A DNA stretch of 42,850 nt from Gemmatimonadaceae bacterium (GCA_051005015.1 JBPCJT010000243.1:1-42850); one strand, 5' to 3'; shown: positions 5,701 through 34,941, counted from the stretch's first letter. Notes: a model not told the origin generated them from the sequence alone. Numbers and translations: made by a program.

Positions 5701-5760
5701 GAGCGAAGTAGTAGCCATACTGTTGGGGAATTTGTAGCGGTTGCTGTTAGGAGGCCGCAT

Positions 5761-5788
5761 TTCGCAGTCCGCAGTTCGCAGCTCGCAA
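5761..5788. repeat. heptamer array TTCGCAG TCCGCAG TTCGCAG CTCGCAA (C-form of the GATTGCG/GACTGCG family)
   Basis: Read directly from the sequence. Its reverse complement shares the words gattgcg, gactgcg, gaactgcg and gagctgc with the arrays at 24121 and 37742. Confidence 0.65.
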
Positions 5789-5809
5789 TCCTTTGCGACG
5801 GGGAGGGGC

Positions 5810-6889
5810 ATGATGCAGATCGGGAACCGAGCACCGAGTACCGCGCAGTGCCACCCGGACACCGGGCACCGGGCACCGGGCACCGGATTCGTTGCGAGTG
5901 AAAGCCCGTTCAGGCAGCGGCCGCGCCGCGCAATTGCGCTCATTTTCACAGCTCTATTCGTGGTCGCTACCGCGCTTCAGGCGCAGAAGAGCATGACGGA
6001 GCGCGGCATACAGCTCTTTGAGCTAGGTCAATACGACGCTGCGAAAAAGGAGCTTGATGCAGCTCTCCAGCAGGATGAGCGAACCACATCCACACTTTTC
6101 TATCTGGGGCGAATCGCCATGATAGAAGGTGATTTCAGCGGGGCGTCCCGGCTGTTCGAGCGCGCTACTCGCACTGAGGGCGCAACGTCCGAACACTATA
6201 GATGGTTCGGGCAGGCATTGGGACAGTTGGCGGCGCGCGGAAGCAAATTCAAAGCCCCGTTCGCTGCCAGGAAAGCCAGGGCGGCTTTCGAGCGCGCGGT
6301 GTCCCTGGACCCGGAGAACGTGGAGGCGCGCGTGGCGCTGCTGCGGTATTATCTCATCGCGCCCGGCGTGATGGGTGGAAGCACCGAGCGGGCCGCGCGA
6401 CAGGTTCCCGAAATCGCCAGGCGAAGCCCGTTCTGGGGGCGGCTCGCCGCGGCCGGTGTGCACGAAGACCGAGCGGACAATGCCGCCGCGGAACGCGAAT
6501 ACCAGAAAGCCGTCGATGAGTACCCCGACAGCTCATCGGCGCTGTATGCGCTCGGCCTTCTATACCAACGGCTGGAGAAGAACGATGAGGCATTCGCCGC
6601 GTTCGAGCGGATGGTGGAAAAGCACCCCGCCAAAATCAACGCGCTGTATGCTATCGGCCGCCTGGGCGCCCAGACCGGACTGAGGCTGGATCGCTCCGAG
6701 GAGGCTCTCAAACTCTTCCTCTCCAAGCCAGTGAAGGAAGACAACGTGCCGCGATCATCCGCGCTTTACCGGCTGGGTATGATCTACGAGAAGACCGGAC
6801 GGCGAGAACTGGCACGTAAGGAATACGAGGCCTCCCTTGGAATCGAGCAACGCTCCGAAGTAAGGCAAGCGCTTGCCCGGCTAAAATAG
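5810..6889 (+). CDS. TPR-repeat protein, probably secreted
   Basis: There are several TPR-like units (YDAAKKELDAAL, FYLGRIAM.EGDF..A, ALYALGLLY.R.....EA...FE..V, ALYRLGMIYEK.G....A). A signal-peptide-like segment reads RRAIALIFTALFVVATALQAQ. The start is uncertain. The ATG at 5810 has GGGAGGGG upstream but would translate the heptamer array at 5824..5886. No ATG/GTG/TTG exists between that array and the signal-like segment. Confidence 0.7.
   Translation: MMQIGNRAPSTAQCHPDTGHRAPGTGFVASESPFRQRPRRAIALIFTALFVVATALQAQKSMTERGIQLFELGQYDAAKKELDAALQQDERTTSTLFYLGRIAMIEGDFSGASRLFERATRTEGATSEHYRWFGQALGQLAARGSKFKAPFAARKARAAFERAVSLDPENVEARVALLRYYLIAPGVMGGSTERAARQVPEIARRSPFWGRLAAAGVHEDRADNAAAEREYQKAVDEYPDSSSALYALGLLYQRLEKNDEAFAAFERMVEKHPAKINALYAIGRLGAQTGLRLDRSEEALKLFLSKPVKEDNVPRSSALYRLGMIYEKTGRRELARKEYEASLGIEQRSEVRQALARLK
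5824..5886. repeat. nine phase-coherent heptamers (63 nt), consensus GCACCGG, decaying toward the 5' end
   Basis: Units are gaaccga gcaccga gtaccgc gcagtgc cacccgg acaccgg gcaccgg gcaccgg gcaccgg. I verified the coordinates unit by unit. Confidence 0.8.
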
Positions 6890-6914
6890 CAACGCGATCG
6901 AAGCGTCCCATAAT

Positions 6915-6944
6915 GGTGCCTGGCCGGTTTCGGTGCCTGGTTTG
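6915..6944. repeat. two copies of GGTGCCTGG 17 nt apart (inverted form of the GCACCGG unit) just after the TPR gene
   Basis: The sequence is ggtgcctggccggtttcggtgcctggtttg. It contains cggtgcc, the reverse complement of ggcaccg from the 5824 array. Confidence 0.5.
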
Positions 6945-6965
6945 TCGATTTTGGCTCCTGCTTCC

Positions 6966-6994
6966 TTGACCAGAAACAGGTCCAGCGCTAAGAT
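6966..6994 (+). promoter_or_regulatory. candidate sigma-70 promoter for the KaiC cassette (TTGACC - 17 nt - TAAGAT)
   Basis: TTGACC lies at 6966..6971 and TAAGAT at 6989..6994, with exactly 17 nt between them. This would give a leader of about 145 nt before the ATG at 7147. The call rests on sequence pattern only. Confidence 0.3.
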
Positions 6995-7146
6995 GATGCA
7001 TGGCGTCGCCCCCCTATCTTTCAGCCGCGCGGCGCTTTAGGTGCGCTGCCCGCCGCGGAGACGACCGGCTGTTCGCGATCGGCCGGGTGCCCCGTTTCGA
7101 AAAAGCGAAGGCGGCTTAGTGCAATCTGTCCTGCTGGCCACCGGCT

Positions 7147-7557
7147 ATGTCTGAGGCATTTGCACCTGGAATGGTCCGCCGCCTTACGGCAATTAGAATC
7201 GCTGGAGCGGCGCCGGACGCCCTGGCTGGCGCTCGGGCCGCGTGTCAGTTTTTACACCACGAACTGTCTCTCTGGTTGGGCGTGGATGGCAGTCGTGCGC
7301 TCTTCAACAGCGCCATTGGCCGTGCGCGCCCAGACCATCCTGTTCTCAGCGATATCCAGCATGAGGCCTTGTTATCGCCAACCCACCCAGCGATAGCACG
7401 AGGCGTACAGATCCATGGAACCGGCGCGACGGTCGCGGCTCTGGAATCCACGCTCGTGGTGCTCATCCAGCTGCTTGGCCGGCTCATCGGAGATGATATG
7501 GCCACCAGGATTGTCGAGAACAGCGAGAAAAACGATGCCGGCATTGCCCGGGGTTAG
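7147..7557 (+). CDS. hypothetical protein (136 aa, Ala/Leu-rich), first gene of the KaiC cassette
   Basis: The track ORF ends 12 nt before the KaiC start, and its stop codon overlaps the KaiC Shine-Dalgarno sequence (tAGGAGaaagg). I recognise no family. It is not KaiA- or KaiB-like. Confidence 0.55.
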   Translation: MSEAFAPGMVRRLTAIRIAGAAPDALAGARAACQFLHHELSLWLGVDGSRALFNSAIGRARPDHPVLSDIQHEALLSPTHPAIARGVQIHGTGATVAALESTLVVLIQLLGRLIGDDMATRIVENSEKNDAGIARG

Positions 7558-7569
7558 GAGAAAGGACTC

Positions 7570-9072
7570 ATGAAAGACGCGAGTGATCTAATCCGGAAGA
7601 TCCGGACCGGCGTACCCGGGTTCGATGCCGTGCTTGGGGGTGGCTTGCCGGAGAATTCCTTCAACCTGGTCGCTGGCGGTCCGGGGTCCGGCAAGACCAC
7701 GCTGACTCTGCACACCATGTTCGCGAACGCCACAGTGAAGAGGCCAGGGCTGTATTTCACGGTGCTCGGCGAGCCGACACTGAAAATGATACGGTACCAG
7801 CGGCAGTTCAGCTTTTTCAAGCCGGACATGGTTGGTTCTGCCTTGCAGTTCGTGAACCTGAGCGAGCAGGTGCTGAAATACGATCTCGACCTGGTTTTGG
7901 AGCGGATACAGCGAGAAGTTGAGCGCGCCAGACCCGGCATCATCGCGGTCGACTCGTTCCGGCCGATAGGCCGCAAAATCGGCGAACCTGTTTCGGCGCA
8001 TGCCATGGACCTCGAGCACTTCCTTCAGCGGCTGGCGCTCAATATGACTTCCTGGGAGGTGACATCCTTTCTGCTCGGCGAGTACTCCGAAGAAGAGAAG
8101 CAGAACCCGGTTTTCACCGTGGCCGACGGAGTGTTCTGGATGCAGCAGGTGACCGACCGGAATTCTGTAGTCCGCAAGATGCAGGTCATGAAGGTACGTG
8201 GGCATGAGCCCATGCCGGGCTTGCACACTTTTCGAATAACGGATGCCGGCCTGCAGATATTCCCACGCATCCCCGAGCAGCAGAAGTCGCGCCGGCCGCA
8301 GTCATTCAAGCGAACCGGCACCGGCGTACCAGGGCTCGACGAGAGAATGGGGGGCGGAATTCCGGTCGGAGACGTGGTAATGCTCGCGGGGCCGGCCGGG
8401 AGCGGCAAAACGACGTTCGCTTCGCAATTCGTGTCAGAAGGTCTCCGACAGGGTGAGTCCGCGGTGATCGCGATTTTCGAGGAATACCCCGAGGAGTATC
8501 TCGGGCGCGCCCGATCCCGGAATGGGGACCTGGAGGAGAAGCTGAAGTCGGGTAAGCTGAAGCTCCTGTACTTGCGTCCGCTCGATCTCTCGGTGGACGA
8601 AACGCTGCATGAAATTCTGGAGGCCGTCAACGAGGTCGGTGCCACACGAGTGGTAATAGACTCGCTGTCGGGTTTCGAGATTGCGCTCGCACCTGCATTC
8701 CGTGAAGACTTCAGGGAGTCGCTTTATCGTCTTGCTGGTGCGCTGACTGCGACTGGCGTGACCGTTTTCACGACCGCAGAAACGACCGGCAGGTATTCCG
8801 ATTTGAGCTTTACGACCGAAAGGGTTTCCTTCATCACCGATGACATCATCGTGCAGCGCTATGTCGAGGTTGACGGGGAGATTCTTACGATCCTGTCGAT
8901 CATGAAAATGCGCGGGAGTGAGCACAGCCGGGAGTTTCTCATCTACGAGATCACCGAAAAGGGAGCGTCCGTGGGGGGTCCGCTTCTGGGCTACCACGGC
9001 ATCCTGTCGGGAATACCCAGCCCAATAGCGTCACTCGAGCGCCCGGCCGGGGTACATGGTGAAAATGGCTGA
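7570..9072 (+). CDS. KaiC-family double RecA-like ATPase
   Basis: There are two tandem KaiC/RecA domains, each with GVPG(F/L)D...GGG(L/I)P and a Walker A motif (GGPGSGKTT, GPAGSGKTT). Walker B motifs are IIAVDSF and VVIDSLS. The C-terminal KMRGSEHS...EIT.KG segment is typical of KaiC. Confidence 0.9.
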   Translation: MKDASDLIRKIRTGVPGFDAVLGGGLPENSFNLVAGGPGSGKTTLTLHTMFANATVKRPGLYFTVLGEPTLKMIRYQRQFSFFKPDMVGSALQFVNLSEQVLKYDLDLVLERIQREVERARPGIIAVDSFRPIGRKIGEPVSAHAMDLEHFLQRLALNMTSWEVTSFLLGEYSEEEKQNPVFTVADGVFWMQQVTDRNSVVRKMQVMKVRGHEPMPGLHTFRITDAGLQIFPRIPEQQKSRRPQSFKRTGTGVPGLDERMGGGIPVGDVVMLAGPAGSGKTTFASQFVSEGLRQGESAVIAIFEEYPEEYLGRARSRNGDLEEKLKSGKLKLLYLRPLDLSVDETLHEILEAVNEVGATRVVIDSLSGFEIALAPAFREDFRESLYRLAGALTATGVTVFTTAETTGRYSDLSFTTERVSFITDDIIVQRYVEVDGEILTILSIMKMRGSEHSREFLIYEITEKGASVGGPLLGYHGILSGIPSPIASLERPAGVHGENG

Positions 9073-10804
9073 CAGGCTGGCGGGTGAAGACAATCCCTTC
9101 GCCCAGGGCGCCTTCCGGGAGTACATGGAGCACGCTCCACAGGCGTTCACGGTCACTCAGGGCGCCGCACAAACGCTCATTTATGCCAATCCAGCGTTTC
9201 GCCGCATGACCGCAATGACCGGAAAGGACGTGGTGGGTATCCCAGTCTGCGACATGTTCGCAGGGCGCGATGCAACAGAGTTACTCGCACTGCTCGACGG
9301 TGCGATGGAACAGGGCATTCCCGTGCGGGATTACCCGGTGGAGTCCTTCGACAATATGGCGGCGATGTGGATCTGTACGGCCTGGCCCGTTCTGGATGCC
9401 AGCGGCCATCCGAATCACCTTGTCATCGAGCTACGAAATGACTCCCACGTGGAGCATTCCCTGGCTATGCAGAGGGATGTTACCGAGCGCCTGCTTCTGA
9501 GCGCGTTGCGCGAGAGTGAGGCCGCGGACAGCGCCAGGGTATCCAGCTGGCGAGATGCATTTCTTGCGAAGGCGAGCCGCGAGCTTGCCGAGACGCTCGA
9601 CGAGCAAGTCATGATTCAGACCCTGGCGAAGCTCGCGCTGCCCCACCTCGGTGCATGGTGCATTGTCGACACTATCGAAGCCGATGCCTCCGTACGGCGT
9701 CTGGCGATCTTCCATCCAGATCCAGTTAAACAAGCGCTGGCTCGGGAGTTGGAAGGCCGCTGGGCTCCCGCGCCAGAAGATCTGTTCGGTGGCCCGGCCG
9801 TACTTCGCGGCGCCGCAGCGACGATTAGCGCCGAACACGTGGAAGCGGCAATAAGAGATACCGAAAGTGGCAGGGACAATGCCTGGGCGCTTTCGGAGCT
9901 TGGCATAGGGCCTGTGCTTACAGTCCCCCTGGTTGCCCGCGCGAAGCTCCTCGGTGTCGTAACCTTTGTAGGAAAGAGTGGTGCGCACGACTATACCCTG
10001 GCCGACGTGGAGTTGGCCCAGGACCTCGCGGCCCGGAGCGCGGTGGCTATTGACGGTGCGCAATTGTATCGCGAGGCCCTCCTGCGCAAGGTAAAGGCCG
10101 AGGTGGCGAACCAGGCCAACACGGCATTTCTGGGAAGGGTCAGTCATGACCTTCGCGCACCCCTGAACGGCATACGCGGCTACATCGACCTCATCGACGA
10201 GGGAATACGCGGGCCCGTGACGGATGCGCAGCGCAGGGACCTCGACCGCATTCGCAAGAACCAGCAGCACCTGCTTCGCCTGGTCACCGAGATTCTGAAC
10301 TTCGTGCGCCTGGGAAGCGATGGCATGCCGTACCACATCACGGACGTCACCGTGCAAGACGCCGTGCATTCCGCCGTGGCCCTGATCGAGCCGCTGATCG
10401 AGGAGAAGAGGCTCGCATTTCAGGGACCCGAGTGCGGTGCGGACGTAGTTTTGCGTGCCGATCCCCTGCACGTGCGAAAGATTCTCCTCAATCTGCTCTC
10501 CAACGCGATCAAGTTTACGCCGTCCGGGGGTCACGTGACGATCATCTGTGAGGCAAAGCCGGAGTCAGTCATGGTGAGAGTAGAGGACAGTGGCATTGGC
10601 ATCCCTCCAGACAAGCACGAGTCCGTGTTCGAGCCATTCGTGCAGGTGAAGAACGGTCTGGCGGACGGCGACGCCGGATTTGGCCTGGGGCTGGCAATCA
10701 GCCGCGATCTCGCGCGCGGCATGCAGGGCGATTTGCGAGTGGAGAGCGAGCTTGGTGCGGGCTCGCGCTTCACGCTCACTCTGCCGCGAGCCAGCAATCA
10801 CTAA
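9056..10804 (+). CDS. PAS-GAF sensor histidine kinase (no receiver domain)
   Basis: H-box FLGRVSHDLRAPLNGIRGY, N-box LLNLLSNAIKFT, G-boxes DSGIGIP and GFGLGLAISR. The N-terminus is a PAS-like then a GAF-like region. The start overlaps the KaiC 3' end (ATG at 9056, or ATG at 9065 in an ATGGCTGA overlap). Confidence 0.9.
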   Translation: MVKMADRLAGEDNPFAQGAFREYMEHAPQAFTVTQGAAQTLIYANPAFRRMTAMTGKDVVGIPVCDMFAGRDATELLALLDGAMEQGIPVRDYPVESFDNMAAMWICTAWPVLDASGHPNHLVIELRNDSHVEHSLAMQRDVTERLLLSALRESEAADSARVSSWRDAFLAKASRELAETLDEQVMIQTLAKLALPHLGAWCIVDTIEADASVRRLAIFHPDPVKQALARELEGRWAPAPEDLFGGPAVLRGAAATISAEHVEAAIRDTESGRDNAWALSELGIGPVLTVPLVARAKLLGVVTFVGKSGAHDYTLADVELAQDLAARSAVAIDGAQLYREALLRKVKAEVANQANTAFLGRVSHDLRAPLNGIRGYIDLIDEGIRGPVTDAQRRDLDRIRKNQQHLLRLVTEILNFVRLGSDGMPYHITDVTVQDAVHSAVALIEPLIEEKRLAFQGPECGADVVLRADPLHVRKILLNLLSNAIKFTPSGGHVTIICEAKPESVMVRVEDSGIGIPPDKHESVFEPFVQVKNGLADGDAGFGLGLAISRDLARGMQGDLRVESELGAGSRFTLTLPRASNH

Positions 10805-11546
10805 AGCGGGCCCACACTCTCGTCGTTTCGGCACCGTCATTTTCGATTGCGACTCGACGCTCTCGTCGATCGAGGGTATCGAGGAGCTGGCGACCGTACA
10901 CCGCGATGAGATCACACGCCTCACTGAGTCAGCGATGCGGGGTGAAGTCGCGCTGGAGAATGTCTTCGCGCGGCGTCTCGAGTTGGTACGTCCATCTCGC
11001 GCGGACGTTACGGCGCTGGGTAATCGCTATGTTCAAACGCTCGTTCCCGACGCAAAGGCGATCGTATCCGCGCTTCGGAGCGAAGGAATAAATGTTCGCG
11101 TGGTTTCGGGGGGACTGCGCCCCGCCGTTCTCGTGCTGGCTCGGTCTCTTGGGCTCAGCGACAGCTCGGTGGCGGCGGTTGATATCCTCTTCGACGAAGC
11201 AGGCGGGTACGCCGGCTTCGATCGGGACTCGCCACTGTCGCGGTCGGGCGGAAAACGGGTTCAGCTCGAACGTTGGCTGCCATCCCTGGCTCGTCCCATC
11301 ATGTTTGTCGGAGATGGCATCACCGACCTCGAGGCTCGGCCGCCTGCCGATCTTTTCGTTGCCTACACGGGAGTAGTGCTGCGCGCCGAAGTCGCGGCCG
11401 GCGCCGATGTGGTCGTGAAATCCATGTCGCTCGCGCCCGTGTTGACACTCGCGCTCGGTGGCGTGCCGCCGGAAGACGCGAAGATCCGTGGGCTGTTCAA
11501 TCTAGGGGCAAGCCTGATGGCCGAAGGGGATAATCTGCGGGAATGA
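10755..11546 (+). CDS. serB: HAD-IB phosphoserine phosphatase-like hydrolase
   Basis: Motif I FDCDSTLSSIEGIEELA, then AM.GE..........RL.L, motif II VVSGG, motif IV VGDGITD. No ATG/GTG/TTG lies in frame between the kinase stop (10804) and the DxDxT motif. The start must therefore be TTG 10752 or GTG 10755, inside the kinase gene. Confidence 0.78.
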   Translation: MRARASRSLCREPAITKAGPHSRRFGTVIFDCDSTLSSIEGIEELATVHRDEITRLTESAMRGEVALENVFARRLELVRPSRADVTALGNRYVQTLVPDAKAIVSALRSEGINVRVVSGGLRPAVLVLARSLGLSDSSVAAVDILFDEAGGYAGFDRDSPLSRSGGKRVQLERWLPSLARPIMFVGDGITDLEARPPADLFVAYTGVVLRAEVAAGADVVVKSMSLAPVLTLALGGVPPEDAKIRGLFNLGASLMAEGDNLRE

Positions 11547-11609
11547 TTCTGCAGCGTGCTTATCTTTCTTCCGTCAGTCAGTAAACGCAGCCTTTTTTGG
11601 AGATCAGGA

Positions 11610-12740
11610 ATGCCCGAATCCACAGCCGAGCCAGGGACGGCTCAAACGTCCACAGCGTTCGGCAAGTTTTTTCTTCCAGGGCCCACTGAAGTGCGCGCCG
11701 ATATCCTCGACGCCATGCGCCGGCCCATGATCGGTCATCGGGGATCGGCGATGGAGGAACTGGTCGGCCGCCTTCAAGCAGGGCTCAAACTCGTTTTTCG
11801 CACCGAGCGCCCAGTCTACATCTCCTCGTCATCGGCGACGGGCCTCATGGAGGCGGCGCTGCGGAATGGAGCGCGCCGCAAGGTACTATCCCTCGTCAAC
11901 GGTGCTTTCAGCGAGCGCTTCTTTCACATTGCGCGTGCATGCGGGCTCGAGGCCGTCGCGCTCGAGGTTCCCCTCGGCGCGGGACATACTACTGACATGC
12001 TCGAGAGTGCGCTGCGCACAGGGGACTACGATGCCGTTACGGTGGTTCATAGCGAGACATCCACGGGGGTTCTTAATCCCATCGCGGAGCTATGCGAGGT
12101 GACGCATGCGGCCGGAGATGTAATGTTTCTCGTCGATAGCGTTTCCGGTGTCGCCGGAGCCCCGGTTGAGACTGATGACTGGAAGATCGACTTTCTGCTG
12201 ACAGGCTCACAGAAGGCGCTGGCGCTGCCGCCCGGCCTTGCCTTGGGCGTTGCGCAGGACAGCATCCTGCGCCGTTCGGAAAGGATTCCGGCTCGCGGAG
12301 TCTACTTCGATTTCATCGAGTTCGAAAAGAACATTCGGAAGAACCAGACTCCGAACACACCCGCGCTGTCGCTCCTGTATGCGCTCGAAGCGCAGCTCGA
12401 GCACATTCTGCGTGAGACCCTCGAGACGCGCTGGGAAAGACATGCGGCAATGGCGCGCCGCACGTGGGAGTGGGTCGATAAAATGAGTAGCTCCGGCTAC
12501 GATCTCAAGATGCTCGCACCGGATGGCTTAAGGTCGCCGACGGTCAGCTGCATTCGTCTTCCCGACGGCGCGCCTACGGGTACTGAGTTGACGCGCAGGA
12601 TGAAGGCGCGCGGATTCACTATCGCATCAGGCTACGGAACGCTCAAGGATGCGACCTTTCGAATCGGTCATATGGGCGATCACACCGTCGATGAGCTGAC
12701 GGTGTTGCTTGGCGAGCTGGAAACCGTGATCGCGCAATGA
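11610..12740 (+). CDS. class V aminotransferase (AGXT / phosphoserine aminotransferase-like)
   Basis: N-terminus FLPGPTEV...M..PMIGHR, and a PLP-lysine context TGSQKALALPPGL. GGAG lies 8 nt upstream of the ATG at 11610. The stop overlaps the serA start (ATGA). Confidence 0.85.
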   Translation: MPESTAEPGTAQTSTAFGKFFLPGPTEVRADILDAMRRPMIGHRGSAMEELVGRLQAGLKLVFRTERPVYISSSSATGLMEAALRNGARRKVLSLVNGAFSERFFHIARACGLEAVALEVPLGAGHTTDMLESALRTGDYDAVTVVHSETSTGVLNPIAELCEVTHAAGDVMFLVDSVSGVAGAPVETDDWKIDFLLTGSQKALALPPGLALGVAQDSILRRSERIPARGVYFDFIEFEKNIRKNQTPNTPALSLLYALEAQLEHILRETLETRWERHAAMARRTWEWVDKMSSSGYDLKMLAPDGLRSPTVSCIRLPDGAPTGTELTRRMKARGFTIASGYGTLKDATFRIGHMGDHTVDELTVLLGELETVIAQ

Positions 12741-14338
12741 CCCAGCCCGTCTTCCGGATCCTGATCGCCGACAAGATATCAGCCGACGGCCTCCTGCCGC
12801 TGCGCCAGGACAGCCGCTTCGAGATCGTCAACCGGCCCGGCCTGACGGGCGATGACCTGGCGCGCGCCATGGCGGACGCGGATGCCGTGATCGTTCGAAG
12901 TGCGACCAGAATTTCTCGGGCGGCGCTCGCGTACAAGGGACGGCTCAAAGTAATCGGCCGAGCCGGAGTCGGTGTCGACACCATCGATGTCGATGCCGCC
13001 ACTGAGCACGGCATCGCAGTGCTGAATGCTCCCTCCGGGAATACCATATCCGCGGCGGAGCTGGCGTTCGCGCTGCTGCTCGCACTCGTTCGCCGCGTGC
13101 CAGCGGCGGACCGTTCGATGAAACAGGGCGAGTGGGATCGAGCGAAGTTCAGCGGCACCGAGCTGCACGGCAAGTGCATGGGTCTCGTTGGCGCTGGCCG
13201 CATTGGCGGGGAAGTGTCGCGCCGCGCGCGGGCTTTTGGGATGCGGGTTTTGGTGTACGATCCGTACCTCAATGAGGAGAGGGCGCGCACACTCGAGGTG
13301 GAGCTTGCTTCGCTCGACGACGTCCTTCGGCGCGCGGATGTGCTGTCGATTCATGTACCGCTCACTGAATCGACCGCGGGGCTGATCGGCGAAGCGCAGC
13401 TGGCCATGATGAAGCCCGGCGCGCTCCTGGTGAACGCTGCTCGGGGAGGCATCGTTGACGAAGCAGCGCTTGGCCGGGCGCTGGCAGAGCGCCGGCTTGG
13501 TGGTGCGGCGCTCGATGTCTTCGAGCAGGAGCCGCTTCCATCCGATCATCCCTTGCGCGGTCTGGACAATATCGTGCTTACGCCGCATCTCGGAGCATCC
13601 ACTGAAGAGGCGCAGCAGAACGTGGCGCTGGAGATAGCGGAGGCTGTGCGTGATGCCCTGGTCGACGGCGATCTATCACGGGCGGTCAACGCTCCAGCGA
13701 TAGGGGGCGATGCGATGCGGAGGCTGCGTCCCCTGCTCGATCTCGCCGAGCGAGTGGGGCGCCTGGCTGCCGCTCTCGCGCCCGGCGCAGTATCGCATGC
13801 GGAAATCCGCTACGCCGGGGCCGCGGAAGACGCACTTCGCCCTCTGGTGGCCAGCACGCTGGTGGGGGTGCTCATGCCCGTTGTCGGCGAGCGCGCCGTC
13901 AACTTCGTAAACGCGCTTCATCTAGCCAAGACCCGTGGCATCGAGGTGCAGAGCACCCGTCTCAGCCCGCACGGTGACTACACGGAGTACATCGAATTGA
14001 GGCTCGCCTCGCGCGAAGGTGAAGCGCGGGTGGCTGGCACGCTGCTGGGCGAAGGTCACCCGCGAGTAGTGCGGATTGGCGATCACCAGATGAACGTCAC
14101 GCCGGTTGGGGCTCTGGTGATGATTCGCAATCGCGACGTGCCCGGCGTGATCGGCCGGGTTGGAACCCTCCTCGGAGACGCCGGCATCAATATCGCCGAG
14201 TACCATCAGGCCAGATTGGAAGCCGGCGGCGACGCTTTTGCGGTGATCCGCGTGGACAGCCGCCTCGCTGCAGCCGCGATCACGGCGTTGCGTCAGGTGC
14301 CGGAAGTGCTTGACGTGCGGCAGGTGCAGTTGGGGTAG
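12737..14338 (+). CDS. serA: D-3-phosphoglycerate dehydrogenase (long form with ASB and ACT domains)
   Basis: NAD-binding motif GLVGAGRIGGEV, plus NAARGGIVDE and TPHLGASTEEAQ. The C-terminal ACT-like segment reads PGVIGRVGTLLGDAGINIA. Confidence 0.93.
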   Translation: MTQPVFRILIADKISADGLLPLRQDSRFEIVNRPGLTGDDLARAMADADAVIVRSATRISRAALAYKGRLKVIGRAGVGVDTIDVDAATEHGIAVLNAPSGNTISAAELAFALLLALVRRVPAADRSMKQGEWDRAKFSGTELHGKCMGLVGAGRIGGEVSRRARAFGMRVLVYDPYLNEERARTLEVELASLDDVLRRADVLSIHVPLTESTAGLIGEAQLAMMKPGALLVNAARGGIVDEAALGRALAERRLGGAALDVFEQEPLPSDHPLRGLDNIVLTPHLGASTEEAQQNVALEIAEAVRDALVDGDLSRAVNAPAIGGDAMRRLRPLLDLAERVGRLAAALAPGAVSHAEIRYAGAAEDALRPLVASTLVGVLMPVVGERAVNFVNALHLAKTRGIEVQSTRLSPHGDYTEYIELRLASREGEARVAGTLLGEGHPRVVRIGDHQMNVTPVGALVMIRNRDVPGVIGRVGTLLGDAGINIAEYHQARLEAGGDAFAVIRVDSRLAAAAITALRQVPEVLDVRQVQLG

Positions 14339-28728: not shown

Positions 28729-30385
28729 CTACCGCCGGGGCTCTCCCAACACCGTCTGCAGCGCGGCTCGGACCTGTGCCACCTGAGTGTTGATGGCAGG
28801 CTCGGCATTCGCTCGGAGTGCCAGATAATGTGAATATGCACGTATCGCCCCTTCGCGATCGCCCGTGACAACCGCCAGGCGGCCTTCTTCACGAAGGTAG
28901 GTGGGCAGGTACTGTGGAACTCTGAGTCCGTATCGCCGGCGGCGCGTCGATGGCCAAGCCGCCTATCGTCGCGCGCGCTTCTGGGATGCTCTGGAGATCC
29001 ACTAACGAAAAGAGACTGTCGGCGGGGCCCTCGGCGTTCGCTTGAGCCTGCGTTTTTCCGCTCGGAACGTCCAGGATGCTTGCGTTCAGAACGATTCGCG
29101 AAGACGTACCAACTGCGCCGCCGAGGAGGAGCTGCCGGCACCCAACTGCCGCGCGATATTCAATGCTGCTTCCTGCGAAAAGCTCTTCACCGTCGGACAT
29201 TCCCGCCCGTCGCCAGGCGCTGACCGCGGACCGTGGATCAACCGCTCGAGGACCACCATCGCCGGTGAGCTTAGCGGCGAGTAGGTCGATCATCCCGTCG
29301 TGTAGATACTTCAAGTCCGGGGCTGCGCCTGTAACGCGAAAGGGAAGCACGGCTATCACGTCTGAAGCCATCGCCATTTCGGTCCCCCCGTCGTGCTGGC
29401 GAAGTGCCCACCCAATGCTGAGAGCCACGATTACCGATCCGACCCCGATGACGAGTGCTGCGCGGCCTGGCAGTCGCCGGGGTACGGTTCCGGTTCCGCT
29501 TCGACCAAGTAGTTCCTCCGGTTGTCACGAGTCTGTCCAACGCGGCTCGAAGCTCTCCGGCACTCTGAGGCCGGTCAGCCGGGCGCTTCTCGAGGCACTG
29601 CTTGACTAGCGTCGCGAGCGCCGCCGGTACGGACGAGCGATGCTTGGCTAGCGGATCGGGCGTCTCGGTCAAGTGGGCCGCGAGCATGCCTTGTGGCGAG
29701 AACGTAGCGAATGGCGGCTGAACCGTGAGCATCTCATACCCGAGAGCGCCCGTAGCGTAGATGTCCGCGCGATGATCCGTGCGCGGGTCGCCGACCGCCT
29801 GCTCCGGGGCCATGTACGCTGGCGTACCAAGAGCGACGCCAGTTGCGGTTAGAGCCGGACCAGAGGACGATTTGCCGGGCGCGTTGCTTTGAGAATCGAC
29901 GAGAGCGCCAACCAATGCCTTGGCGACGCCGAAGTCGGTGACAACTGCGTGCTGGGCAGTCAGGAGCACATTGTCCGGCTTGATGTCGCGGTGAACGACT
30001 CCATGCTTATGCGCGTAATCGAGCGCATCGGCTACGTCCCGGAGTACTCGAACGGCGTCTGCAATCGGCAACTCGCCATCGCGGGCAAGCCTGGCCCGAA
30101 GCGACTCGCCTTCGATCAGGGGCATCGTGTAGTAGAGGATGCCGTCCGCCGTCCCAGCGTTATGGATCGGAACGATATGCGGGTGGTGTAACTGCGCGGC
30201 GACCTGCACTTCGAGGCGAAAGCGGTCGGAATTCACGCCTGCGGCGAGATCGGGCGGAAGGGTCTTGAAGACTACGTGTCGTCCTAGCGCGGTTCCCGCG
30301 CAACGAAAACACGGCTCATCCCGCCGCCGCCCAGCTCGCGCTCAATGGCAAAGGCGCTTCCCAACGCAGATTGGAGGCGCTTCAT
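28729..30385 (-). pseudogene. Ser/Thr protein kinase (Hanks type, TM + IAVLPF domain + TPR-like tail) disrupted by at least three frameshifts
   Basis: The N-lobe MKRLQSALGSAFAIERELGGGGMSRVFVARE runs into a TAG at 30286..30284. The rest of the kinase continues in another frame (TALGRHVVFKTLPP...HRDIKPDNVLL...DFG...GTPAYMAPEQ; track ORF 29271..30236). The TM segment and IAVLPFRVTG domain are in a third reading (track ORF 28889..29428). The tail YLREEGRLAVVTGDREGAIRAYSHYLALRANAEPAINTQVAQVRAAL ends at TAG 28731..28729 in yet another frame. Confidence 0.75.
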
Positions 30386-32433: not shown

Positions 32434-32497
32434 GGAGCAGGGAGGGAGATTACAACGGTTACCCGCCATCCTTACTCCCTACTCCCCGCTCCCCTTC
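32422..32497. terminator. inverted pair of 4x7-nt arrays (AGTGGAG family / complement) between the convergent HIT and MCP-like genes; both TAG stops lie inside the arms
   Basis: Left arm 32422..32449: agtggag agTAGgg agcaggg agggaga. Right arm 32470..32497: ccttact ccCTAct ccccgct ccccttc. The 21-nt cores match 17/21 as inverted copies. Both proteins end in GSGE-stop. Confidence 0.65.
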
Positions 32498-34644
32498 CTG
32501 TTTCCTCCGTCCCTTACGGCCGCCACCGCCGACGAGAGGTCTTGAGCCATCCTGCTCAAATCGGTCGCTGCGTCGTTCAGCGCCGCCAGCGACGACGCCT
32601 GTTCCTCGTTCGCCGCCGCCACGGAGTCAGTTTCCGTCGCCGCGCGCTCCGCGTCTTCCCGGGCTGCCACAAGCGAATTCGCCATCGCGGCTGAGCGATT
32701 AGCGGTTTCTCTGGCAGCGATCGCTATCCGGCCGCCCACGGCCGCGACTGCTTCCGAAGCTTCAACAATCTTGTCGAGATCGCGGGACCAGCTGCCGCTG
32801 GCCTGTGCGACCGACAGCACTTCGCTGCGAGTGCGTCCCATGAGCGTCACCGCTCGATCGAGCGTCGCGCGAATGTCGCGGACCGCGCGTTCCATCCCTT
32901 CCGCCTCCTCGGTGCTCTTGTCGGCCAGTTTGCGAACTTCCTTGGCGACGACCGCAAAGCCGCGGCCGTGTACGCCTGCCCGTGCGGCTTCCACAGCAGC
33001 GTTCAGCGCGAGTAACCCGGTCTGGTCGGCGATGGTGGTAATCGTATGTCCGAAGCGTTGCACGACGCGAGACACCGTCTGTAGTCGAGCAACCTCGTCG
33101 CTTCCTTCCTGAACGATTGCGGCCGCGGCGGTAAGTTTCGTAATGGCGTCGCGAATTGCGTCTCGGACACCGCGCGCTGTATGCACCATGCGTTGTCCGC
33201 TGTCTCTCGTCTCGGCCCCTTCACCGTGCGCGGTGTCGGCGGAAGCGCGCACGACGTGAGCGTCCTCAGCGCCGGCCGCGAGTGTGTCGGCGAGAACGCG
33301 GACTGAGGCGTGAACCTTGGCCGCGCTCTGTGCGCTCTCGGCGGTTGACGCCGCGAGCTGCTGAGTGGTGGCGGTGATCGATTCCACCTGGATCGCCGTG
33401 CGCTCCGATGCTGATAATACCGGTCGTACCAGGGAGTCCAGTTGCATCGACAGCGCCAGCTGAGGAGCGAGATAGCCGAGTAGAGAGGCATCGTGCTGGC
33501 GGTACATGCGCGCGAGCCTGTGCCTAATGCTCCAGAGTCCCACTAGCTGAGCGCCATGTTTGAGAGGAATGATGATCTCGGATCCCGTGTGCCCCCATTC
33601 TTCGCGCGCGTGGCGCGGCAGATCGGTGTCCGTGGTGGCGGTTCCGCTCTCGACTGCGAAGCCCGCCATTCCACCACTGGCGGAAAAACGCGAACCGAAC
33701 GGCTTGGCAGGATCGGTTTCAGCAAGAACCACGAACTCGTGCCGCTGGCGGTCATATGCCGAGAGTCCCATTTCCTGCCAGGGTACAAGGGTGCGCGTCA
33801 AGGCCTGTGTGTCCTGGAGCGCCTGCATGATCTCCGCGCGCGCTGTAATCAGGCTGCCCAGGCGATTCACCAGCTGCATGCTCTCACCGGTGGCGCCCTG
33901 CCGCACCAACCAATGCGACATCATCGTCAGACCGCAGATAATCAGCGCGAAGGTCACGTACTGTGGCGCCGTCAGCGACGAGTAATGCAGCCGTAGCGCT
34001 CCCAGGCCGAGGAGCGTAGCCAGTACCGTTACCGTCGCTTCCCATCGCATGCTCAGCTTGACGTCTACCCACGCTATGGCCGGAGAAAGCCGAAGCTGCA
34101 GATAGAATGTCGTATTCTGAATGACAGGGACGAGAGCGCAAAGCAGGACGAGTCGCCAGACATTCCAGGGGGCAAAAGCCGCGGTGCCAAGCCCCCCACC
34201 GAGGAGCGTGTAGATCCAGCCACTGACTGCGACCGCAGCCGTGACGTGCGACGCATTGGAAATCGCGTTGCGTGCGGGCAGCCGCCGAACCACCATGTCG
34301 CCGGCAACGATGCCAATGGCGGAGACGATAGCTCCAGCGGCCCACCCGAGCGCAAACACCGACGCCGTAGCAGTTCCGATGACGAAGCTGGCGAAGCCCT
34401 TTCCGGGGAGGGGAATACCGAATGCCCGAGCGCCAACGGTCAGCCAGAAAACGAGTAGCGCTACAGTCCATGGGAAGGGGCTCAGGTACTGCTTGAAAAC
34501 AAAGCCGAGTGATACCGCGAGCACGGCTGCCGGCATCACGGTGCGCCGGACGATCTCATCGGTAAGCCAGGAAGGCTTCTGCAAAGGGTCGGTGTCGCCG
34601 GTCGGGGTATCGAACTGCGTTGCTGGTGCGGTAGCTGCGGTCAT
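32479..34644 (-). CDS. methyl-accepting chemotaxis-like sensor: polytopic membrane N-terminus + GAF-like domain + MCP signalling domain
   Basis: The C-terminal signalling hairpin reads [44 protein letters not shown]. About 8 hydrophobic helices occupy the first ~300 aa. I see no HAMP domain. The ATG at 34644 ([10 protein letters not shown]) is preferred. Confidence 0.85.
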
Positions 34645-34941
34645 GTTTCGGTCTCGAGCACGGCGGATACCGCTGGAGCCCGGGTGGGATTCCGGCCGTC
34701 CGGGCGGCAACCTCGGAACGCTATTGCGCGTTTGGTTTACACGCTGCAATGTGAGGACGCGTGGCGCGCCCACGCCGTCACGCTTAACCGTCTCCTGGGG
34801 AGCGCTTTGGAGCCTCTGCCCATTGCCCGACGATCACGCCGCTTGCGAGCGGGTGAATCGACGCCCCTCTCATCTCTCCGCTCGACGCCCTGGCCTGGGA
34901 CCATTTCCCGGGCTCGGGCGTCTCTCTTTTGGTGAGGTGCC

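Follow-up and report, generated by a model that had tools for sequence, protein, structure and literature searches.

The window analysed here, a 42.9-kb stretch of DNA (42,850 nucleotides; JBPCJT010000243.1 of assembly GCA_051005015.1) from a Gemmatimonadaceae bacterium, contains three adjacent open reading frames (ORFs) on the + strand, coding for a small protein of 136 amino acids (aa), a 500-aa double-domain ATPase of the KaiC family and a 582-aa sensor histidine kinase, respectively (Table 1). The three genes are one operon, and with a probability of roughly 0.6 they represent a KaiC-centred signalling module without KaiA or KaiB, in which the small protein is a dedicated subunit. The TAG stop codon of the small gene (7555–7557) is followed by the 12 nt GAGAAAGGACTC and then, at 7570, by the ATG of kaiC; the TGA stop codon of kaiC (9070–9072) lies within the kinase gene, which starts either at ATG 9056 (17-nt overlap with kaiC) or at ATG 9065 (8-nt overlap). 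The spacer, the Shine-Dalgarno sequence over the stop codon and the overlap of the second and third genes are all as described in an earlier reading of the window made without database searches (the sequence-only reading). A public record of the small protein (P0001) starts at M9 (128 aa); the eight residues ahead of M9 are kept in close relatives, which supports the 136-aa start. A scan for promoters and terminators gave matches at a frequency not above that in shuffled sequence, and the single sigma-70-like match upstream of the small gene (6966–6994) was likewise no excess over shuffled sequence.

Table 1. Features of the three-gene locus, with positions counted from the first nucleotide of the window and KaiC residues set against those of Synechococcus elongatus KaiC where an equals sign is given.
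Feature	Position	Strand	Remarks
Presumed promoter region	6890–7146	+	257 bp intergenic, between TPR gene (5741–6889) and small gene
Small all-alpha protein gene	7147–7557	+	136 aa; alternative start 7171 gives 128 aa
Small gene/kaiC junction	7555–7569	+	TAG stop, AGGAG Shine-Dalgarno sequence across the stop, 12-nt spacer
Double-domain KaiC-family ATPase	7570–9072	+	500 aa; PF06745 twice, E = 1.1e-68
CI Walker A	7675–7698	+	GGPGSGKT (K42/T43); intact in all orthologues
CI catalytic-glutamate position	7765–7779	+	LGEPT where S. elongatus has FEETP
CII Walker A	8389–8412	+	GPAGSGKT (K280/T281)
CII catalytic pair	8476–8490	+	FEEYP; E304/E305 = E318/E319
Phosphosite segment	8809–8832	+	FTTERVSF; T415 = T426, S420 = S431, F421 = T432
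Cytoplasmic sensor histidine kinase	9056–10804	+	582 aa; alternative start 9065; Pfam PAS_4-GAF-HisKA-HATPase_c
Kinase PAS	9128–9427	+	Pfam
Kinase GAF	9611–10051	+	Pfam
Kinase HisKA	10118–10318	+	Pfam; H-box H364 at ~10145
Kinase HATPase_c	10460–10792	+	Pfam

Conservation of the three-gene cassette

One genome per GTDB species was scanned, restricted to the motif LLGRLIG[DE]D of the small protein, and 52 loci were obtained. Fifty of these are labelled Gemmatimonadota (or Gemmatimonadetes, Gemmatimonadales or Gemmatimonadaceae), the remaining two being a 1.8-kb contig binned as Opitutus and a locus labelled only "bacterium". In every locus that extends far enough (52 of 52, the window included), the small gene is followed on its own strand by a kaiC orthologue (62–83% identical); in turn, the kinase gene directly follows kaiC in all related loci long enough to contain it (45 of 45). 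A 4-nt stop/start overlap joins the small gene to kaiC in 31 of the 52 loci, and the gap between kaiC and the kinase gene is typically 5–10 nt in the related loci. A further scan of metagenomes with a degenerate DNA pattern gave 74 matches, only 10 of which were true family members; here kaiC is immediately downstream of the divergent forms (LL[SPTA]RLIGDD) in nine of nine cases with room. The sequence-only reading had treated the three genes as a module, and the small gene is indeed found directly 5' of kaiC in both samples. The flanks are variable (27 clusters among 42 loci upstream, 25 clusters among 30 loci downstream), and contigs from the protein database carry the same triad in other genomic surroundings, for example after UbiA and flavoprotein genes in locus L002. 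Since the flanking genes are not conserved, the three-gene cassette appears as the selected unit, and Gemmatimonadota are the phylum for which the module is typical.

In one subclade, the small gene is immediately preceded, on its own strand, by a receiver gene or a gene for a REC-GAF-HisKA-HATPase hybrid kinase (L044:5197–7785, L051:7180–7641, L052:5643–7724, L055:5049–5564, L056:5877–7754 and L057:5223–7049). These upstream REC genes are possible cognate phosphorelay partners of the triad that are missing from the lineage of the window.

The KaiC homologue and the kinase

Two KaiC/RecA-like domains lie in tandem in the central protein, and both have their Walker A and B motifs (GGPGSGKT with VDSF, and GPAGSGKT with IDSL), so that the two-domain KaiC with intact motifs described in the sequence-only reading is borne out. 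Its best PDB sequence matches are KaiC proteins (E = 6.7e-66); the NCBIfam equivalogs for the circadian clock protein KaiC, TIGR02655 and PRK09302, were missed, with scores below cut-off (181.4 vs 546 and 256.3 vs 408, respectively). For residue assignments, the protein was aligned by MAFFT with 44 complete orthologues from related loci and with S. elongatus KaiC, the reference sequence being identical to PDB 1u9i over residues 1–519; the CI register was cross-checked by HMMER and the CII register separately against PDB sequences.

In CI, G67 stands at the position of E77 and E68 at that of E78 by both MAFFT and HMMER, and the segment YFTVLGEP is invariant across the 44 aligned orthologues. 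The alignment given in the sequence-only reading (E77 to Gly, FEEYP in CII, T426 and S431 kept, T432 to Phe) therefore holds; of the two CI glutamates, E77 is lost and E78 is kept. In CII, FEE is constant among the orthologue variants listed, and the residues corresponding to K457 and R459 are kept in a conserved KMRGS motif. At the phosphosite, all orthologue variants listed have SF, with Val before it in every case except one (ISF); T415 is kept in at least 90% of the orthologues. The B-loop in CI, which is the docking site of KaiB and SasA in cyanobacteria, is 5 residues shorter in all orthologues relative to S. elongatus residues 108–112. A segment resembling the A-loop (GILSGIPSP vs RIISGSPTR) is present in the window KaiC, and the long C-terminal tail is absent. 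Mean column identity across the orthologues is 0.83 in CI and 0.82 in CII; with both domains this strongly conserved and the same changes recurring, the altered positions represent selected properties rather than decay. The catalytic glutamate of CII is E318 (PMC9171630), and E77 is its counterpart in CI because the EE pairs of the two domains are homologous. A double mutant with E77Q and E78Q retains residual CI ATPase activity (PMC9171630), and, judged from its sequence, CI of the window protein is probably weakened rather than dead.

The best 120 KaiC homologues are all 67–85% identical and belong to the same orthogroup. Most of them are 560–576 aa long, and many of these long forms have precomputed TrmB or MarR hits. 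The long forms (for example L042:8436–10124 and L056:8324–10033; L042–L061 and most of P0251–P0365) carry about 65 additional C-terminal aa resembling a winged helix-turn-helix (wHTH) of the TrmB/MarR type, and the tails of L042 and L056 match TrmB with E = 1.4e-5 and 2.8e-5 (score 25.3 vs a Pfam cut-off of 25.6). The segment makes the long forms KaiC-wHTH fusions; it is absent from the window KaiC and from another large group, with a length of about 497 aa. In three metagenome-assembled genomes with names beginning MFD (L053, L054 and L061), kaiC (~8381–10118) is split over two frames near residue 189, through either an error of assembly or sequencing or a real frameshift.

The kinase contains neither a KaiB-like N-terminal domain nor a receiver or pseudo-receiver detectable by Pfam, and the SasA-type model PRK09303 scored 105 against a cut-off of 342. 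In line with the sequence-only reading, which had found no KaiA, KaiB, SasA/CikA receiver or REC domain in the window, a Pfam scan across its whole length, over 38 ORFs of 90 aa or more that do not overlap, detected no KaiA, KaiB or REC domain. Six-frame phmmer searches covering every window ORF down to 50 aa, seeded with KaiA, KaiB and four receiver sequences, were also negative; as a positive control, the same seeds recovered KaiB and many REC domains in related loci.

A family of small helical proteins

No match to the 136-aa protein was found in Pfam, NCBIfam or PADLOC. A first homology search returned 14 relatives, none of which is functionally annotated, and a second, profile-based search returned 99 proteins, all without Pfam domains and nearly all named "hypothetical protein"; all those among the 99 with an organism name are from Gemmatimonadaceae. 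A profile search over 1.84 billion representative proteins assigned 1569 clusters to the family with a threshold of E ≤ 1e-3, or 602 with one of E ≤ 1e-10; nearly all have 130–170 aa. Two motifs are conserved, W-x-G-x-D-G-x-x-A-L-F (7273–7305) and LLGRLIGDDMA (7471–7503), for which the family consensus is W-x-G-x-x-G-x-x-A-L-F-x-R-A and L-L-x-R-[LF]-[IV]-G-x-[DE], respectively. An AlphaFold2 model built from a 137-sequence alignment is all-helical, with eight helices, a predicted local distance difference test score (pLDDT) of 90.5 and a predicted template modelling (TM) score of 0.83. Because of the 602 clusters and the confident model, the small protein is considered real and folded. No plasmid-borne relatives were found.

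The absence of a recognised family, claimed from the sequence alone, extends to PDB sequences and PDB folds. The 137-sequence profile gave a best E of 1.3 against all PDB sequences, with no Kai protein among the matches; Foldseek searches of PDB with the model gave a best E of 3.3 and TM scores of at most 0.36, with no KaiA among the matches, and nothing better than E = 2.3 was obtained when an earlier model was included. A KaiA- or KaiB-like fold, which would have removed the case for a new kind of partner, was thus detected neither by profile nor by Foldseek. KaiA is ruled out as the identity of the small protein by the Pfam, profile and fold searches, and KaiB, a thioredoxin-like alpha/beta protein, by the lack of a PF07689 match, the all-helical model and the lack of a fold match. 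A globin or other known fold was rejected for want of any Foldseek match in PDB, and a defence system because PADLOC gave weak matches at the P-loop level only (mad8, E = 5.7e-11, in the Walker region) and left the small protein without a match.

Proposed function, alternatives and surroundings

Gene order and tight translational coupling favour KaiC as the partner of the small protein, which on these grounds is probably KaiC's dedicated partner. KaiC would form a hexamer in which CI mainly holds the ring together and hydrolyses ATP weakly, and CII would autophosphorylate a single serine, S420. In the cyanobacterial cycle, priming at T432 promotes phosphorylation of S431 (PMC12065004); as T432 is absent, the ordered T432-then-S431 cycle cannot run. 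The phosphorylation state might instead act as an on/off, two-state or slowly accumulating signal, which the PAS-GAF kinase, by analogy with Pseudomonas (see below), would read and pass on to a response regulator encoded outside the window. The small protein would be co-translated with KaiC and made in stoichiometric amounts, as synteny and coupling suggest; it would most likely bind KaiC and perhaps bridge it to the kinase, setting or reading the phosphorylation or ATPase state, and would so occupy the place that KaiA and KaiB have in cyanobacteria while being unrelated to either. A free-running clock is unlikely, an hourglass or a switch for stress or stationary phase being more plausible. 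The one-site switch or hourglass and the role as KaiC partner proposed in the sequence-only reading are reasonable inferences.

Compared with KaiABC of S. elongatus PCC 7942, the window KaiC shares the fold, both P-loops, the EE pair of CII, T426, S431, the K/R sensor residues and the A-loop-like segment, and the locus shares a histidine kinase as the reader and a small accessory gene directly upstream of kaiC, the place of kaiB in cyanobacteria. It differs in that the window has no KaiA or KaiB and the accessory protein is all-alpha and neither of the two by profile or fold; in KaiC itself, E77 is replaced by Gly and T432 by Phe, the B-loop is 5 residues shorter and the long C-terminal tail is missing. 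Unlike SasA, which has a KaiB-like N-terminal domain, and CikA, which combines GAF, kinase and pseudo-receiver, the window kinase has neither extra domain. Outside cyanobacteria, SasA homologues lack the KaiB-like domain, and the second phosphosite varies also within cyanobacterial KaiC2 and KaiC3 (PMC5520375).

A parallel arrangement is found in environmental Pseudomonas (Terrettaz et al., bioRxiv 10.1101/2022.01.26.477890). There, KaiC homologues without KaiB are encoded in an operon together with a PAS histidine kinase, whose PAS domain is bound by KaiC. The second phosphosite is variable, group I KaiC having T/S followed by Tyr at 431/432, and the phenotype is one of adaptation to stress and stationary phase, not of circadian timing. 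The same combination, a KaiB-less KaiC and a PAS-containing histidine kinase in a single operon, is present in the window; in contrast to Pseudomonas, position 432 is a non-phosphorylatable Phe, and the single-domain response regulator that is usually adjacent there is missing from the window. The Pseudomonas work reports no small upstream partner. Most myxobacterial KaiCs have one conserved phosphosite, lack the B-loop and keep an A-loop-like sequence, and myxobacteria have no KaiA and only rarely KaiB (PMC11832031); these paralogues are not described as having a conserved small partner or as part of a fixed operon of three genes. PMC11832031 also cites work in which S431 by itself was sufficient for a temperature-compensated rhythm of the cyanobacterial system. 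Rhodopseudomonas palustris (PMC4794148) and Rhodobacter sphaeroides (PDB 8dba/8fwi) also have a KaiA-independent, non-cyanobacterial KaiC linked to a PAS kinase. The R. sphaeroides protein is more distant from the window KaiC (137 bits) than cyanobacterial KaiC is (~194–226 bits), and the proteobacterial KaiBC hourglass timers depend on KaiB, which the triad lacks. These timers also rely on a coiled-coil C-terminal extension of KaiC that is missing from the triad KaiC. Archaeal KaiC-like ATPases have reportedly been proposed as signal-transduction hubs by Makarova and colleagues in 2017, a proposal cited in PMC5847659. These ATPases are found in linkage or fusion with HTH domains and with small uncharacterised partners, mostly have a single KaiC domain and occur in different neighbourhoods; the long-form Gemmatimonadota orthologues resemble them in carrying a TrmB-like wHTH. 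A literature search returned no description of KaiC in Gemmatimonadota and none of a small conserved or named extra Kai partner. Orphan KaiC with a PAS kinase and single-phosphosite KaiC are thus already known, and the family of small partners is the new element.

KaiC homologues are widespread beyond cyanobacteria, and the regulators that replace KaiA and KaiB there are largely unknown. The small protein is a candidate for such a regulator: its family is unannotated, has no detectable known fold and is tied genetically to a single KaiC clade throughout a phylum. Should it bind KaiC, it would define a new class of KaiC regulator and offer a simple three-protein system, with a single phosphosite and a weakened CI, for probing ancestral properties of KaiC clocks. 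The locus also gives a lead to the function of a sizeable family of "hypothetical proteins" in the abundant and poorly studied Gemmatimonadota.

Several observations weigh against this interpretation. Contact between the small protein and KaiC is proposed from synteny and coupling, and the 42.9-kb window contains no response regulator gene. The view of the source genome is limited to these 42.9 kb, and KaiB may be encoded elsewhere in it. With E78 kept, CI may still be active as an ATPase, as the residual activity of the E77Q/E78Q mutant illustrates. The wHTH on most orthologues suggests that the output there is direct DNA binding, and the window protein has no such domain. Two further findings are weak pointers to the kinase. 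Protein P0105 (604 aa, L136:166–1980) joins the small domain in frame to the linker, GAF, HisKA and HATPase of the orthologous kinase, with the PAS domain replaced and no KaiC; as a singleton on one 2365-bp metagenome contig it points there weakly. In a mirror-tree analysis, the partial correlation was 0.62 between small protein and kinase and 0.30 between small protein and KaiC, values heavily confounded by shared phylogeny and evolutionary rate (all three raw pairwise correlations were 0.94–0.96).

The fusion of the small domain to the kinase in place of PAS and the higher partial correlation with the kinase would agree with a role of the small protein as kinase input or adaptor, docking on or replacing the N-terminal sensor while KaiC acts in parallel on the PAS domain. 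We regard this as unlikely, though it is the best placed of the alternatives: the fusion may stem from a deletion or an assembly artefact, the mirror-tree values are confounded as stated, the order is invariably small gene, kaiC, kinase gene, and the tightest coupling, the 4-nt overlap, links the small gene with kaiC and not with the kinase gene. An adaptor in a ternary complex of all three proteins would fit gene order, coupling, fusion and mirror-tree results alike.

More doubtful still is that the small protein acts as a non-homologous analogue of KaiA or KaiB that gates a single-serine cycle and so makes the module an autonomous timer, either an hourglass or a damped oscillator. It might then bind, for instance, at the A-loop-like C-terminal segment, or at the phospho-serine site via two near-invariant arginines; if true, this would amount to independently evolved KaiC regulation in a largely non-phototrophic soil phylum. 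It is very unlikely that the module is mainly a DNA-binding transcription regulator in which KaiC is an ATP-driven switch on DNA, the kinase and the small protein are accessory and the window copy is derived or decaying, its DNA-binding domain having been lost. The length of most of the closest 120 homologues and their TrmB/MarR hits, including those of L042 and L056, would speak for it; the TrmB scores, however, lie just under the Pfam cut-off, and the short form without wHTH (~497–500 aa) is widespread (about 30 of the 44 complete orthologues), is as well conserved and keeps the small gene and the kinase gene, and is therefore a functional variant rather than a product of decay. Least probable of all is a conventional KaiBC hourglass with KaiB encoded elsewhere in the genome and the small protein as an unrelated conserved neighbour: KaiB does occur in Gemmatimonadota, about 4 kb from the triad in locus L013 (PF07689, E = 4.8e-20), but it adjoins its own, different KaiC with its own PAS-kinase-REC gene, the short B-loop, the loss of E77 and the Phe at T432 of the triad KaiC all speak against KaiB-type regulation, and an unrelated neighbour would not be expected to keep its place in 52 of 52 loci, with stop and start codons overlapping.

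Other KaiC proteins are encoded in two of the related loci. The one in L013 (4188–8264, - strand) has 591 aa; CI contains FEE, the phosphosite pair reads IST and the tail is a coiled coil, and its gene is next to those of KaiB and of a PAS-kinase-REC hybrid, resembling the proteobacterial KaiBC type. With this classical-looking module beside the triad, Gemmatimonadota hold KaiB-dependent and KaiB-independent KaiC systems side by side. In L048 (12998–16126, - strand), a KaiC paralogue has TLSEP in CI, with a single glutamate, and SY at 431/432, like Pseudomonas group I, and adjoins a receiver gene and a histidine kinase gene.

The neighbours of the triad in the window are housekeeping genes, coding upstream for dehydroquinate synthase, cobalamin adenosyltransferase, a pyridine-nucleotide disulphide oxidoreductase, RsgA and the TPR protein, and downstream for a HAD hydrolase, a class-V aminotransferase, phosphoglycerate dehydrogenase, OsmC and a rhodanese. 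No Rfam family reached the gathering score across the whole window. More distal genes code for a TonB-dependent receptor, a Ser/Thr protein kinase (29271–30236, - strand), a cytoplasmic-looking, GAF-containing methyl-accepting chemotaxis protein (32479–34773, - strand) and others; the latter kinase and the chemotaxis protein are not linked to the triad in related loci. Directly 3' of the histidine kinase gene (10680–14338), the genes for the HAD hydrolase, the aminotransferase and the dehydrogenase, which has an ACT domain, resemble a set of three for serine biosynthesis. After the kinase stop codon, the HAD frame offers no canonical start; it may begin inside the 3' end of the kinase gene and be co-transcribed with it; the same HAD/aminotransferase/dehydrogenase neighbours are present in locus L001.

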